This document shows, piece by piece, positions 18,001 through 24,000 of a stretch of 64,000 bases of DNA. The stretch lies in NCBI RefSeq assembly GCF_055900595.2, contig NZ_CM148325.1; one strand, 5' to 3'. How positions within the stretch are numbered: position 1 is the stretch's first letter; every line of letters begins with the position of its first letter. A program made the position numbers.

Positions 18001-21000
18001 CAGTTATAAAGGTCAGCCTGTCACCCGGCTTGCTGTTATGCTGAATTTACTGGTTTTTATTCGCTCCAGTGAACTCAGATATGCCCGCTGGGCTGAAATT
18101 GATATTGACAATTCAATGTGGACTATTCCAGCCGAACGCAAACCTCTGCCAGGGGTAAAATTCTCACACCGGGGCTCCAAGATGCGAACACCACATCTTG
18201 TGCCACTCAGCAAACAGGCTGTAGCCATACTGACAGAACTTCAGACATGGGCTGGTGAAAATGGTCTGATCTTTACGGGAGCACATGACCCGCGTAAACC
18301 AATCAGTGAAAATACCGTAAATAAGGCCCTCAGAGTGATGGGGTATGACACAACCAAGGAAGTCTGTGGCCATGGATTCCGGGCGATGGCGTGCAGTGCA
18401 TTGATTGAATCAGGTTTGTGGTCCCGCGATGCTGTGGAACGTCAGATGAGCCATCAGGAGCGTAATGGTGTACGTGCTGCGTATATCCATAAAGCAGAAC
18501 ATCTGGAAGAACGTCGACTGATGCTACAGTGGTGGGCAGATTTTCTGGATGCGAACAGAGATAAGGGTATCAGCCCGTTTGAATATGCAAAGATTAACAA
18601 TCCATTAAAATAGTAAGCAGTCCGGGCTGATTGCCCGGACTGCTTTAACTGATTATTTTTCTTTGTAAATGATGACGAAGATTGATGTTCTGGCAAGTTA
18701 CTCCGGCTTCCATTAAAGTCCCTTCGTCATGTTCTTCAGGCTATTTATGACTGTGATTAGCACCAGGAATATCTGGTTTCCATGAGAGCAGGTAATAACC
18801 CCCGGTGTTTTCGGCTGTTCTGGTATCCTTGTCCAACGCAGGCAGTCATTATAAACGGTAAAAAATGTATTCACTGTTATGAAATCAATAGTCCTGACGT
18901 ACTGTTGAATGTGCTTGCGTTCTGAACCTTGTACAACCAGTACATTTGATACCGAATTATAAACAAAACATTGCATCCAACTTTTTCAATATGGACAATA
19001 GTTGTCCATATGGTGGTTTTATATTCGATAAATCAATGGATTTCATTGAGTCATAGGACTGGTAATGGATGAAAATGCTTTAGGGTTTGCCTCATACTGG
19101 CGCAACTCGCTTGCGGACGCTGAGTCAGGAAAGGGCAGTTTTGAACGGAAAGACGCCAAAAATTTCACTCATTGGCATGGGATAGCGGCGGGACGTCTTG
19201 ACGAAGCGATTGTCAGTAAATTTTTTAAGGGAGAAAAAGACGATGTCGAAACGGTCGATGTCATCTTGCGCCCAAAAGTTTATTTCCGGTTACTGCAGCA
19301 TGGTAAGGACCGTTCTGCAGGTGCGCCTGATATTGTTACCCCGATAGTGACGCCAGCCTTGCTAAGCCGTGAGGTTTTTTTATATCCGACGCCAGCGACC
19401 TCCATTCCCAGAGACCTGCTTGAACCTTTGCCAAAAGGAGCATTTTCGATTGGTGAGATTGGGCAGTATGACAAATACAAGACGACCCATACCACGTTCT
19501 CTATCAACTTTGATGACAGCGTTGATAAGACTGCCGAAACGGATGAAGAACGGGAAGAACGATATGCAGCCTTGCAGCAGGAGTGGCGTCAATATCTGGA
19601 TGATTCAGAGAGGCTGCTGAAGAACGTTGCCGGCGACTGGATTAAAAATCCTGAGCAATATGAACTCGCTGAGCACGGTTATATTGTTAAAACGGCGCAA
19701 TCTGGCGGTGCCAGTTTCCATATCCTTTCTCTTTATGATCACCTGCTTGTTTGCAATAAGGATGTGCCGCTCTTCAATCGATTCGCCTCGCGAGAGGTTC
19801 ATGCTGCAGAGTCTTTGCTGGCCCCTGGAGCAAAATTCAGCGACAGGCTTGGACACTCCGGAGATAAGTTTCCGCTGGCAAAGGCTCAGCGCGATGCCTT
19901 AAGCCATTTTCTGGATGCTAAACATGGCGATATCCTTGCTGTTAATGGCCCTCCTGGAACCGGAAAAACCACGCTGGTGCTTTCTATCATCGCCACGCAG
20001 TGGGCCAGAGCGGCTCTCGAAAAATCTGAGCCTCCGGTTATTATCGCGACTTCAACGAATAACCAGGCTGTAACGAACATTATTGAGGCATTCGGGAAAG
20101 ACTTTTCGCAAGGTTCAGGTGCGATGGCCGGGCGATGGTTGCCAGAGCTGAAAAGCTTCGGCGCTTATTTTCCCTCAGGCAGCCGTAAAGCTGAAGCAGC
20201 CAAAAAATATCAAACTGAAGATTTCTTCAACCAGGTTGAGTCAAAAGAGTATGTAGAAGATGCACTGCTGTTTTATCTGGAAAAGGCTAAGGCAGCCTTT
20301 CCTGAAAAAGAGTGTTCATCCCCTGAAAAGGTCATTGAACTCCTGCATGGTCAGTTGGCAGCAAAATCCGAGCAACTGATAAGACTGAACGCAACATGGC
20401 AAAAGTTAAGCCAGATTCGGGCTGCGCGTGAGCTTATTGCTAATGATATTGAGCAATATCTCAATAATTTAAATAAATTACTTTCCGGACAAGAACAAAA
20501 AATCACTCTACTGAAGAGTGCTAAAACGGAATGGAAAAAATATCGCGCCGGTGAATCACTGATCTATTCATTATTTTCCTGGCTTCCGGCGGTTCGCAGT
20601 AAGCGACAGTACCAAATACAGCTGTTTCTCGAAGATAAATTAGGTGCGCTGATTGCAGGAAATCAATGGTCTGATCCTGAAACTATCGAACGTAATATTG
20701 ATGGGCTGCTCAATTCCGCTGAGCGCGAGCAAACAACATACCGGCAGCAGATTGACTCCGCCCATGAAATCATTCTTAAAGAACAGCAGGCGGTTCAGGA
20801 GTGGCAGAGACTGGCTCTTGATTTAGGGTATGAGGGCGACGAGGAACTGAGCTTCTCACAGGCCGATGAACTGGCTGATACGCAGATTCGCTTCCCTGCA
20901 TTTTTACTGACGACTCACTACTGGGAAGGTCGTTGGCTGATGGATATGGCCAGCATTGATGATCTGCAGGAAGAGAAGAAGAAAAAAGGCGCTAAAGGGG

Positions 21001-24000
21001 TAACCGCCCGTTGGCAACGTCGAATGAAACTCACTCCATGTGTGGTGATGACATGCTATATGCTGCCCGGCAATATGCAGATAAGTGAGCACAAAGGACA
21101 GCGTAAATTCGAGAAAAGTTATTTGTATGATTTTGCCGATTTACTCATTGTCGATGAAGCCGGGCAGGTGCTTCCTGAAGTGGCTGCTGCCTCGTTTGCA
21201 TTAGCTAAGAAGGCATTAGTGATTGGCGATACGGAGCAGATCCCGCCAATATGGAGTATTGCTCCTGCGATTGATATCGGTAACATGCTGGCGGAAAAAA
21301 TTCTGTCTGGCAGTACGCAAGAAGAGATTACCGAGAAATATACGGCAATCGCAGACCTTGGTAAAAGTGCCGCATCTGGCAGCGTTATGAAAATAGCGCA
21401 GTTTGCTTCGCGCTATCAATATGATCCCGAACTGGCTCGTGGTATGTACCTATATGAACACCGCCGGTGCTACGACAATATTATTGGATACTGTAATACG
21501 CTCTGCTATCACGGTAAGTTGTTGCCTAAAAGAGGGCGTGAAGAGAGCAATTTAATGCCCGCAATGGGGTATCTCCATATTGATGGTAAAGGAGAGCTGG
21601 CAAGTAGTGGAAGTCGATATAATTTGCTTGAGGCTGAAACGATAGCGGTCTGGTTGGCAGAGAACCAGCAAAATATTGAAGCGCATTACGGTAAATCGCT
21701 TCATGAAGTTGTCGGTATTGTGACGCCTTTTAGCGCTCAGGTATCCACTATCAAACAGGTGCTGGGCAAACAAGGTATCAGTACAGGCACGAATGAAAAG
21801 TCGCTCACAGTGGGCACCGTGCACTCTCTTCAGGGAGCGGAAAGAGCGATTGTGATATTCTCGCCAGTCTATTCAAAACATGAAGACGGCGGGTTTATTG
21901 ATAGCGATAACAGCATGCTGAATGTTGCAGTCTCCCGTGCGAAGGACAGTTTTCTGGTCTTCGGCGATATGGACCTGTTTGAGGTCCAGCCAGCCTCATC
22001 GCCACGGGGATTACTGGCAAAATACCTCTTTGAGTCAGAGAAGAATGCGCTCTCTTTTGATTATAAAGAGCGTAAGGATTTAAAAACCGCCGGGACCAAA
22101 ATCTACACACTTCATGGTGTGGAGCAACATGATAATTTCCTGAATCAGACATTTGAAAATACCAGTAAACACATCACGATAGTTTCTCCATGGCTGACCT
22201 GGCAAAGGCTGGAGCAAACCGGTTTTCTTGATTCCATGATTGCGGCGTGTTCACGTGGAATTAACGTCACGATAGTCACTGACAGAAGCTACAACACTGA
22301 ACATAATGATTTTGAGAAGCGAAAAGAGAAGCAGCAGAACTTTAAAGCGGCGCTGGAGAAACTGAATGCGCTGGGTATTGCTACAAAGCTGGTAAACCGT
22401 GTTCATAGCAAAATTGTTATTGGTGATGATGGTTTGCTGTGCGTGGGATCGTTCAACTGGTTTAGTGCGACACGGGAAGCGCGATATGAACGATACGATA
22501 CATCAATGGTTTATTGCGGTGATAACCTGAAGGGTGAGATTGAGGCTATTTATAATAGTCTTGAGAGGCGGCAGGTTTAGAGCAGGAATGGTGAGTAGCC
22601 ATCTTACCGATCGTTTTCGAGCGTAAGATGGCTGAATGGAATGGCTATTATTGCACAGTCCTTAATTATAACATTCATACCGACATGATTATCTTCTGTC
22701 CGGAAGAATCAGAGGCTGTGGTTTCAGACTGTCTGCCGGTACATTCCTGTCTCCGTTAAAAACAATAACGGGTTCATTATCTTCGTCTGTCAGCGGATTG
22801 AATGGCGGTATATTTTCAGTACGAATGCCGGTCAGCCACTGAAAAATACCTGCGAAATGACGGGCACTGATTTTTCTGCTGACGGACTGATGAGACGTGA
22901 TGTCACTGGCGGTAATAATCAGGGGAACGCTGTAGCCTCCTTGTATATGGCCATCATGATGAACAGGATTAGCACTGTCGCTGACCGACAGACCATGGTC
23001 AGAAAAGTAAAGCATGGCAAAATGACGGGAGTGCCGGCGAAGGATACCATCAAGCTGACCGAGAAAGTTATCCAGTTTACTGATGCTGGCGAGGTAACAG
23101 GCAATCTTTCGGGGATACTGCTCCAGGTAATGATTCGGCCAGGAGTTAAGTCGGTCACACGGATTCGGATGAGAGCCAATCATGTGCAGGAATATCACCT
23201 TCGGAGAGGATTTATCCGCCAGTGCACGTTCTGTTTCCTGTAACAACAACATGTCATCCGTTTTACGGGAAGCAAAGCTGCCTTTCTTGAGGAAAACGGT
23301 ATGCTCCGCATCAGAAGCAATAACAGAGATGCGTGTATCATGCTCCCCCAGTTTTCCCTGATTGGATATCCACCATGTGCTGTATCCTGCTTTTGCTGCC
23401 AGCGCCACCACGTTGTTGCCGGAGTCAGGGTTCTGCTCATAGTCATAAATCAGTGTCCGGCTCAGGGAAGGTACGGTACTGGCTGCTGCCGATGTATAGC
23501 CGTCAATAAATAAACCGGGAGCCGTATTCAGCCATGGTGTGGTTGGCACGGGATAGCCATATACCGACATATAATCCCTGCGCACACTCTCACCAGTAAC
23601 GATAACAATCGTGTCATACAACGGTGTTCCCGGCAGGATTTTCCAGTTGTCAGCCCCGTGCTGACTCAGTTGTTTATAACGCTGCATTTCACGCAATGTG
23701 TCAGTTGTTCCCACAACAATTCCTTTAACCATCCGCAACGGCCAGCTGTTTACAGAGCATAATACGAACAGCAGCAGTGCCAGCCAGTTACGGTGACCGC
23801 GGTGGTGTGTCCGCCAGAAAATCACCATGAATACCAGAATCGCGGCACTGACCAGAAAATGATAAACAGGAATCATCCCGGTAAACTCTGCAGCCTCATC
23901 AGCCGTGGTCTGCAGCAACGCGACAATAAAACTGTTGTTGATTTTACCGTACGTCATACCCGCAGGCGCATACAGTGCACAACAGAACAGAAATAACAGC

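Follow-up and report, generated by a model that had tools for sequence, protein, structure and literature searches.

The mkoC locus

The window analysed here, a stretch of 64,000 nucleotides from contig NZ_CM148325.1 (NCBI RefSeq assembly GCF_055900595.2), carries a tRNA-Phe gene, a P4-type integrase gene (int), a gene for a helicase-nuclease fusion that we attribute below to mkoC and, convergent to it, a phosphoethanolamine-transferase gene, followed by an outer-membrane protein (OMP) gene (Table 1). RefSeq annotation and a hairpin search confirmed the setting given in the preliminary description, which had placed the gene at a tRNA-Phe and integrase, with an int terminator upstream and a convergent transferase gene downstream. 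An Rfam scan of positions 16900-25300 returned the tRNA alone and no further family. A duplicate of the tRNA-Phe 3' end (attR) was searched for and not detected anywhere in the window; the island therefore extends beyond the window end. The hairpin behind int coincides with the point where similarity stops between islands with different cargo. The view of the integrase-proximal position as a variable cargo slot was upheld in a small genome sample. In other genomes a 347-aa protein filled this slot; it had no PADLOC match and TPR matches only below threshold.

mkoC is one ATG-started ORF with uninterrupted translation, as seen in the ORF listing of the window. Its boundaries and strand, as well as every motif coordinate previously given, proved correct when the sequence was translated. 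Walker A (GPPGTGKT, with lysine K301) occupies residues 295-302 (nt 19947-19970) and motif II (DEAG) starts at residue 697 (nt 21153-21164), with further helicase motifs GDTEQIPP, TVHSLQGAE and NVAVSRAKD at residues 721, 918 and 953. The HKD motif HSKIVIGD lies at residues 1114-1121 (nt 22404-22427, the histidine at nt 22404), GSFN at residue 1128 (nt 22446-22457), and the 1171 residues contain exactly one HxK(x)4D motif. Pfam found AAA_11 (272-492 and 679-729), AAA_12 (777-969), PLDc_2 (1028-1138) and PLDc (1110-1133). The catalytic residues K301, D697, E698, H1114, K1116, D1121 and N1131 are all present and conserved across the family, as is G1128 of the PLD domain. An insertion between Walker A and motif II had been put at about 300 residues; it does exist, but in the AlphaFold2 model (pLDDT 93.5) it comprises about 260 residues, from about 394 to 654.

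Upstream of the start codon, an AGGA Shine-Dalgarno sequence was found at 19055-19058. Upstream of its MkoC gene, the SG150 clone of Millman et al. matches the region 18905-19064; the palindrome within this region may serve as an operator or a structured 5' element.

Table 1. Features of the mkoC locus, in window coordinates.
Feature	Position	Strand	Basis
tRNA-Phe (pheU side, downstream of dsbD and dicD/yjdC; island integration site)	17078..17153	+	ARAGORN, Rfam, RefSeq annotation of identical stretch
P4-type tyrosine integrase (context only, outside the defence system)	17351..18613	+	NCBIfam PRK09692 integrase domain, E=4e-74; RefSeq annotation
13-bp G+C-rich hairpin directly 3' of int stop codon; likely int terminator	18615..18645	.	
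~160-bp upstream region accompanying mkoC in unrelated genomic contexts; presumed promoter and 5' UTR	18905..19064	+	alignment of four contexts
Palindrome ATATGGACAATAGTTGTCCATAT, kept in all contexts	18989..19011	.	alignment of four contexts
mkoC, 1171 aa, calculated mass 131.5 kDa	19065..22580	+	PADLOC MkoC profile; likeness to verified SG150 MkoC
N-terminal alpha/beta domain, aa 1-268, specific to MkoC family	19065..19868	+	
Codon 104, Val in the window	19374..19376	+	
Helicase RecA1, first part, aa 269-393, with Q275 and Walker A GPPGTGKT	19869..20243	+	
All-helical insertion in RecA1, aa 394-654, five long helices	20244..21026	+	
RecA1, second part, aa 655-775, with DEAG and GDTEQIPP	21027..21389	+	
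Helicase RecA2, aa 776-975 (Pfam AAA_12), with TVHSLQGAE and NVAVSRAKD	21390..21989	+	
C-terminal PLD-family nuclease domain, aa 1012-1171, single HKD and GSFN	22098..22577	+	Pfam PLDc_2, PLDc; partial MkoB, DrmC; NucT
Hairpins in 108-bp gap between convergent mkoC and ept; likely terminators	22589..22632	.	
Phosphoethanolamine-transferase gene (ept), convergent to mkoC; neighbour, not partner	22689..24188	-	RefSeq annotation of identical stretch
Tia/Hek-like outer-membrane adhesin (OMP) gene; neighbour, not partner	24370..25110	-	

Assignment to Mokosh type II

This gene is mkoC, which alone makes up Mokosh type II, an anti-phage system already described. The PADLOC MkoC profile PDLC03924 matched the protein end to end (E=0, 1689.2 bits, residues 1-1169 on profile positions 1-1135 of 1136), whereas the MkoA profiles matched residues 692-994 only and the MkoB profile residues 1011-1138 only. 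An Upf1-like (COG1112-type) SF1 helicase with intact ATP-binding motifs, recognised by Pfam, motifs and fold matches alike, is joined on the same polypeptide to a C-terminal PLD domain with an intact HKD. No obligatory partner accompanies it: the flanking genes are int and ept here and others elsewhere. ept and the OMP gene were considered as partners and rejected, mkoC being found without them and they without mkoC. Pfam detected no kinase domain, and no PLD gene adjoins mkoC in the ORF listing or in the RefSeq annotation of an identical stretch.

The preliminary description had read the product as a single-gene helicase-PLD anti-phage protein following the logic of Mokosh type II. The full-length MkoC match and the near-identity to a verified allele bear this reading out, and the profile searches it had proposed recovered AAA_11, AAA_12 and PLDc_2. 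Placement in a housekeeping helicase family, part of an outcome it had named as speaking against itself, did not occur: NCBIfam scores stayed far below their cut-offs for the IGHMBP2-family model TIGR00376 (79 against 349 bits), RecD2 (26.5 against 500) and RecD (24.9 against 310).

Mokosh type I, represented by E. coli ETEC H10407, is a two-gene system consisting of the kinase-helicase MkoA, with a Ser/Thr kinase domain, and the HTH-PLD protein MkoB. Its helicase core and PLD domain are related to those of the window protein (MkoA match at residues 692-974, E=3.5e-36; MkoB match at residues 1011-1138, E=7.6e-17), but the latter has no kinase domain, possesses its own N-terminal domain and carries the PLD domain as a fusion. 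In E. coli K-12, yjhR of the KpLE2 element aligns to window residues 834-1171 with 67% identity, HKD included. In MG1655, however, it is annotated as a pseudogene with only the C-terminal 338 codons left, and it is a diverged paralogue and not the same allele. Cury et al. took 'yjhR' as their E. coli fused Mokosh.

A sequence search of the PDB returned no solved Mokosh protein. The best fold matches of the model in the PDB (Foldseek) were Senataxin, Upf1, IGHMBP2, Aquarius and Dna2, with E values down to 3e-16 and TM scores, normalised by target, of 0.45-0.57; Upf1-like helicases were also the best sequence matches to solved structures. MkoC shares with these SF1B helicases (Upf1, Senataxin/Sen1, IGHMBP2, Aquarius, Dna2, ZNFX1) the two-RecA core with insertions in RecA1. 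It differs from them by a sequence identity of only 11-15%, by the purely helical nature of its insertion, a bundle of some 260 residues, and by an N-terminal domain that has no counterpart there. We know of no PLD domain in any of the Upf1-like helicases compared; Dna2 carries a different nuclease.

The PLD domain resembles single-HKD nucleases such as Nuc, H. pylori NucT, Zucchini/PLD6 and DrmC of DISARM, which likewise have one HxK(x)4D..GSxN per chain. Those are small stand-alone proteins that form their active site as homodimers, whereas the MkoC domain is fused to a helicase in a protein reported to be monomeric in solution. Direct matches to NucT and DrmC were weak. When the isolated domain was compared with PDB sequences, the top matches were spurious (designed beta-propeller repeats) and NucT, at E=0.02, was the only meaningful one.

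The tested allele, distribution and V104

SG150, a 'Mokosh type II' system from E. coli 5-366-08_S1_C1, is marked as verified in the supplement of Millman et al. 2022; for its clone of 3903 bp, MkoC, of 1171 aa, is the sole gene listed. Over the 399 residues of SG150 compared, the window protein differed at 13 (96.7% identity). A genome copy serving as proxy differed from SG150 at 2 of these 399 residues and from the window protein at 34 of 1171 (~97% identity). By sequence, then, the window protein and the experimentally verified E. coli MkoC are near-identical alleles, with the same length, domain order, catalytic motifs, ~160-bp upstream region and A995/L996 boundary. What sets the window protein apart are about 34 substitutions, counted via the proxy and including G104V, and a different genomic setting.

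SG150 MkoC is probably also the 'EcMokosh II' of a 2025 nuclease-NTPase preprint, whose truncations M1-A995 and L996-end coincide with A995/L996 in the window protein. That preprint reported a monomer by mass photometry (~138 kDa measured, 132 kDa expected), cleavage of only ssDNA in vitro, in a panel without RNA substrates, nicking of plasmid, and protection against only the ssDNA phage SECphi17. On concentration dependence it is inconsistent: its text describes activity at all concentrations, its figure legends at 1 uM only. Millman et al. 2022 reported that E. coli was defended by three Mokosh systems and that mutations in the ATP-binding and PLD sites abolished Mokosh defence, an effect that the accessible text does not ascribe to type II specifically. 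Mokosh type II has also been reported from the genome of an avian pathogenic E. coli.

mkoC was present in ~16% of complete E. coli genomes and missing from ~84%, and 69 complete genomes carried mkoC DNA at least 99% identical. The gene was usually part of an int-mkoC-ept-OMP module that heads islands located at pheU, pheV, leuX or a tRNA-Ser gene. In one genome (locus L004) it lay amid HNH, restriction endonuclease, TIR and type I R-M genes, without the island module; the upstream flank of the tested copy matched this context and not the int-mkoC-ept module. Relatives that lack the PLD domain were seen to adjoin ART-PolyVal, GGDEF or unknown genes.

The N-terminal domain had no fold relative in the PDB, and a Foldseek search of its model against AFDB50 gave only MkoC-family proteins or fragments among the 50 matches listed. 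Pfam had no match in residues 1-270, and PHROGs scans of the N-terminal 285 residues and of the insertion returned no family. The possibility, raised earlier, that these two regions make the protein a distinct variant of Mokosh was rejected: both occur in 72 diverse full-length homologues and lie inside the MkoC profile, so that the entire architecture is conserved across the family. Judged from these homologues, the N-terminal domain and the insertion are family features. Y11, D18, R116, L119, P121, W174 and Y224 of the N-terminal domain are invariant; the insertion occurs throughout the family, but its sequence is poorly kept (12-23% identity to the window protein).

Among the substitutions of the window protein, V104 alone falls on a conserved column. 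The tested allele has glycine there, as do all 72 diverse homologues and 90 of the 91 representatives of near-identical clusters. The activity of the window allele could thus differ from that of its tested counterpart. Residue 104 sits in the AlphaFold2 model between strands 95-101 and 105-108, and G104V might disturb a beta-hairpin turn of the N-terminal domain and leave this copy attenuated, inactive or re-specified. We consider this unlikely, since the ORF is intact, an identical protein is known from 90 contigs, nearly identical DNA recurs in the complete genomes mentioned above, no further conserved column is altered and a lone Gly-to-Val exchange in a turn is often tolerated.

Working model and its alternatives

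We favour, at a probability of about 0.93, a model in which mkoC is the sole component of a Mokosh type II system and the first cargo of a P4-integrase island at tRNA-Phe (pheU) of an E. coli chromosome, acting in four steps. MkoC would be made from its own promoter within the ~160-bp upstream region; a clone of the near-identical allele with its native upstream region was active according to Millman et al. 2022. The protein would then idle in the monomeric state reported for the E. coli protein. Its SF1B core, by analogy with the family, would load on single-stranded nucleic acid and translocate with ATP, and the C-terminal PLD nuclease would cut the strand. Since one HKD constitutes only half of a canonical PLD active site, cutting probably requires two molecules to come together on the substrate. 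The preliminary description went further and stated that the nuclease must dimerise; we keep this at the level of a deduction from the motif, the purified E. coli protein being a monomer in solution according to the 2025 preprint. The N-terminal domain and the helical insertion may be the likeliest sites of target sensing or auto-inhibition.

The principal alternative concerns the nature of the target. MkoC might sense and cut phage RNA or RNA/DNA hybrids, like Upf1-type surveillance or the piRNA-pathway pair MOV10L1 and Zucchini/PLD6, with ssDNA cleavage as a side activity. Its nearest solved folds are indeed the RNA helicases Senataxin, Upf1 and IGHMBP2. IGHMBP2 and Senataxin, however, act on DNA or RNA/DNA hybrids too, and the DNA-acting Dna2 is also among the good fold matches. 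Cury et al. likened the structure of the E. coli fused Mokosh to MOV10L1 (TM 0.74) and PLD6 (TM 0.63), and RNA or RNA/DNA intermediates are the Mokosh target proposed by Millman et al. 2022. RNA substrates were outside the in vitro panel of the 2025 preprint, but the biochemistry it provides, cleavage of ssDNA together with protection against an ssDNA phage, points the other way. An RNA target therefore appears doubtful to us, though it deserves to be kept in mind.

A function other than defence, as a housekeeping or repair helicase-nuclease or in maintenance or transfer of the pathogenicity island, is highly improbable. The RefSeq names, only 'AAA domain-containing protein' or 'DNA helicase', would allow for it, as would the observation that mkoC mostly travels with an integrase and virulence-type neighbours (ept, Tia/Hek-like OMP, pap). 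It is difficult to reconcile with the absence of the gene from most complete E. coli genomes, with its presence inside an R-M/TIR/HNH cluster and with the low RecD and RecD2 scores. It is moreover already contradicted by Millman et al. 2022, where the near-identical copy, cloned alone, sufficed for phage defence.

The Mokosh type II assignment leaves room for a more speculative idea, to which we attach little likelihood: residues 1-996, comprising the N-terminal domain, the helicase and the helical insertion, may form a reusable sensor-motor chassis coupled to different effectors by lineage, here to the fused PLD domain and in the PLD-less relatives to products of the adjoining genes. G104V would then mark a change of specificity or activity in an E. 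coli lineage associated mostly with poultry.

As a discovery the gene has little value, PADLOC and DefenseFinder already labelling it Mokosh type II; the attribution is useful as annotation, RefSeq keeping the generic 'AAA domain-containing protein'. For the biology of the islands, the analysis shows that the classic pap-type pathogenicity islands at pheU, pheV and leuX carry an anti-phage gene as their first gene, in the variable slot that immediately follows the integrase.

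Gene, family assignment and architecture

The window is part of an E. coli chromosome. Several complete genomes, most of them from poultry, match the 8.2 kb around the helicase-PLD gene mkoC at 100% identity. The ORF listing and translation gave a single ORF, on which all motif coordinates of the preliminary description proved right. The surroundings, too, were as stated there: a tRNA, a P4-type integrase gene (int), a hairpin immediately behind the int stop codon and a convergent phosphoethanolamine-transferase gene (ept). Flanking genes identify the tRNA-Phe site, downstream of dsbD and dicD, as the pheU side. 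In Pfam, AAA_11, AAA_12 and PLDc_2 were found in the product, MkoC (131.5 kDa), and the first 270 residues gave no match.

The PADLOC MkoC profile matched over its full length (E = 0, 1689 bits, residues 1-1169 against profile positions 1-1135 of 1136), whereas the type I Mokosh profiles matched in part only, MkoA with the helicase part and MkoB with the PLD part. The window gene is mkoC of Mokosh type II, and the helicase-PLD anti-phage interpretation made from sequence alone is upheld and sharpened to this type. MkoC passed no NCBIfam model, which is why its RefSeq name is only 'AAA domain-containing protein'. Assignment to a housekeeping helicase was also considered and rejected, the RecD, RecD2 and IGHMBP2 family matches lying far under the NCBIfam cut-offs.

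The preliminary description had further allowed for a distinct variant, set apart by its N-terminal domain and insertion. This did not hold, since both are common to the family. Searched exhaustively, the 50%-identity representatives yielded 12,946 relatives (E up to 0.001), and well over 100 of the best 150 align over nearly the whole of MkoC, with residues 1-285 and the insertion covered. When 72 of these relatives were aligned, 91% of the cells of the N-terminal domain were occupied, and Y11, D18, G43, G104, R116, L119, P121, D136, W174 and Y224 were invariant or nearly so. The helical insertion was present in every one of the 72, yet diverges fast (12-23% identity to window MkoC). AlphaFold2 modelling of the full chain was confident (pLDDT 93.5, pTM 0.89) and gave the domains listed in the table. 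Outside the HKD motif, His1022, with which the first PLD helix begins, was invariant in 73/73 aligned sequences.

Features of the mkoC locus, its product and the loci compared (window nucleotides unless stated otherwise)
Feature	Position	Strand	Remark
int-ept space, window	18614-19064		variable among related integrases (L007, L008, L010, L011, L012)
Palindrome	18989-19011		23 bp, ATATGGACAATAGTTGTCCATAT; ~55 bp upstream of the mkoC start codon
mkoC	19065-22580	+	1171 codons
Codon 104	19374-19376	+	Val
Walker A, GPPGTGKT	19947-19970	+	K301
DEAG motif	21153	+	
NVAVSRAKD motif			in the mkoC product
Codon 1022	22128-22130	+	His
Single HxK(x)4D motif, HSKIVIGD	22404	+	H1114; then GSFN
Alpha/beta N-terminal domain	first in model		AlphaFold2
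RecA1	helices at residues ~394-654		AlphaFold2; split by five long helices
RecA2, then short linker	after RecA1		AlphaFold2
PLD fold	residues ~1012-1171		AlphaFold2
Phosphoethanolamine transferase (ept)	22689-24188	-	EptA/CptA-like
Autotransporter ORF	33118-36942	-	1274 aa
Low G+C segment	37001-40000		0.35-0.39
AbgT-family transporter ORF	37254-38813	-	
Second phosphoethanolamine transferase	43796-45223	-	EptA/CptA-like
PemK/MazF-family toxin fragment and 'inovirus Gp2 family protein' gene	L005 2619-2774 and 22457-22513		strain Ch1 annotation, distal island; L005 aligned to 44000-64000
yjhR pseudogene	L006 7016-8032		MG1655
PLD-less family members	L013 4001-6982; L014 143-3160; L016 4001-6973		~970-1040 aa

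Relation to tested proteins and the V104 allele

Mokosh is described in the preprint by Millman et al. (10.1101/2022.05.11.491447) as a system of an RNA helicase (COG1112, Upf1-like) and a PLD nuclease, type II having one gene with the PLD domain after the helicase. Three such systems gave protection in E. coli, and mutations of the ATP-binding and PLD active sites abolished defence, a statement made there for Mokosh in general. The supplementary table of the same work lists system SG150, 'Mokosh type II', from E. coli 5-366-08_S1_C1 as verified, with an MkoC of 1171 aa. Window MkoC showed 13 differences from it across the 399 residues given in that table, and in the upstream DNA of the clone the final ~150 bp were nearly identical to the window. 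The genome copy of KMS2001 was taken as a proxy for the tested allele. It differed from SG150 at 2/399 positions and from window MkoC at 34/1171; the latter is therefore about 97% identical to the tested protein. EcMokosh II, probably the SG150 protein, was purified in a 2025 preprint (10.1101/2025.07.10.664194). Its expected mass of 132 kDa and the truncations made there (M1-A995 and L996-end) fit window MkoC, in which A995 and L996 are present. These comparisons make window mkoC a near-identical allele of a defence gene whose product has been characterised by experiment.

Among the 34 differences from the proxy, 33 sit in variable columns. The exception is position 104, where the window has Val and 72/72 diverse homologues have Gly, as do SG150 and 90/91 near-identical cluster representatives. 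The AlphaFold2 model puts this residue in an N-terminal-domain turn flanked by two strands. The exact V104 protein of the window is recorded on 90 contigs.

Mechanism and target

The functional data (defence, residue dependence, monomeric state and ssDNA cleavage) were obtained with near-identical or related proteins and not with the window allele. According to Millman et al., a near-identical Mokosh II protects the host when it is cloned on its own behind its native upstream region (10.1101/2022.05.11.491447). EcMokosh II was a monomer by mass photometry (~138 kDa measured; 10.1101/2025.07.10.664194). By analogy with Upf1-like SF1B helicases, MkoC would translocate 5'-3' on single strands, and the N-terminal domain and helical bundle may serve in sensing or auto-inhibition. 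In Nuc/Zucchini-type single-HKD nucleases, two HKD motifs are brought together by two molecules; MkoC, too, would probably need two of its molecules to join two motifs.

The main rival within the Mokosh family concerns the target, which could be RNA or an R-loop. This kind of target was proposed by the original authors (10.1101/2022.05.11.491447) and is echoed in the piRNA-pathway analogy drawn by Cury et al. However, EcMokosh II cleaved ssDNA substrates only, besides nicking plasmid, and of the 11 phages in a panel the ssDNA phage SECphi17 was the only one it protected against; the substrates used in vitro were without RNA (10.1101/2025.07.10.664194).

Island context and distribution

A module of int, mkoC, ept and an outer-membrane protein (OMP) gene, Tia/Hek-like in the window, heads islands at pheU (the window), leuX, pheV and a tRNA-Ser gene, with pap genes following it at leuX and pheV. 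In one genome mkoC lies instead amid HNH, restriction endonuclease, TIR and type I R-M genes, a context that the SG150 clone shares in its upstream flank. Of the upstream DNA, only the ~160 bp next to the start codon accompany the gene. Within them lies the palindrome, a possible operator or 5'-UTR structure, which was conserved in 4/4 genomic settings aligned as well as in the published clone.

Similarity between islands stops at the int terminator hairpin. Beyond it, the slot before ept holds mkoC in the four islands named, an unrelated 347-aa protein with a small 76-aa ORF, or IS66 genes (ISEc8 transposase fragment, tnpA, tnpB, tnpC) followed by a partial NERD-domain gene, with no ept annotated at this locus; in other cases it is empty. 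The 347-aa protein had no PADLOC match, only sub-threshold TPR matches and no known defence signature. These varying occupants, in a small sample, support the earlier view of the integrase-proximal position as a cargo slot.

Two diverged phosphoethanolamine transferases, one of them the ept product, are encoded on the island, and both score far under the cut-offs of the MCR models for colistin resistance. The region of the autotransporter and AbgT ORFs is rich in IS66, IS3 and IS21 fragments. No repeat of the tRNA-Phe 3' end lies in the window, so the island reaches past the window end.

mkoC occurs in 888/5426 complete E. coli genomes, chromosomal and at no less than 90% nucleotide identity in all, and at 95% or more in 883. 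The 90% protein cluster counts 2941 members, and close relatives occur in Shigella, Citrobacter, Salmonella and Enterobacter. The yjhR pseudogene of K-12 MG1655 consists of the last 338 codons (matching residues 834-1171) of a 67%-identical MkoC paralogue and is therefore a decayed type II Mokosh within KpLE2. Several PLD-less family members match residues 1-996 only and may have arisen by truncation or by exchange of the effector. Of the three in the table, one lies between an 899-aa protein and an ART-PolyVal gene on its upstream side and an ISL3 element downstream, another has a GGDEF-domain gene 8 nt upstream, and the third has a 683-aa unknown protein next downstream.

mkoC is already known, and routine tools have already detected Mokosh type II in avian pathogenic E. 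coli. What interest is left lies with the family as a whole and with the G104V allele.
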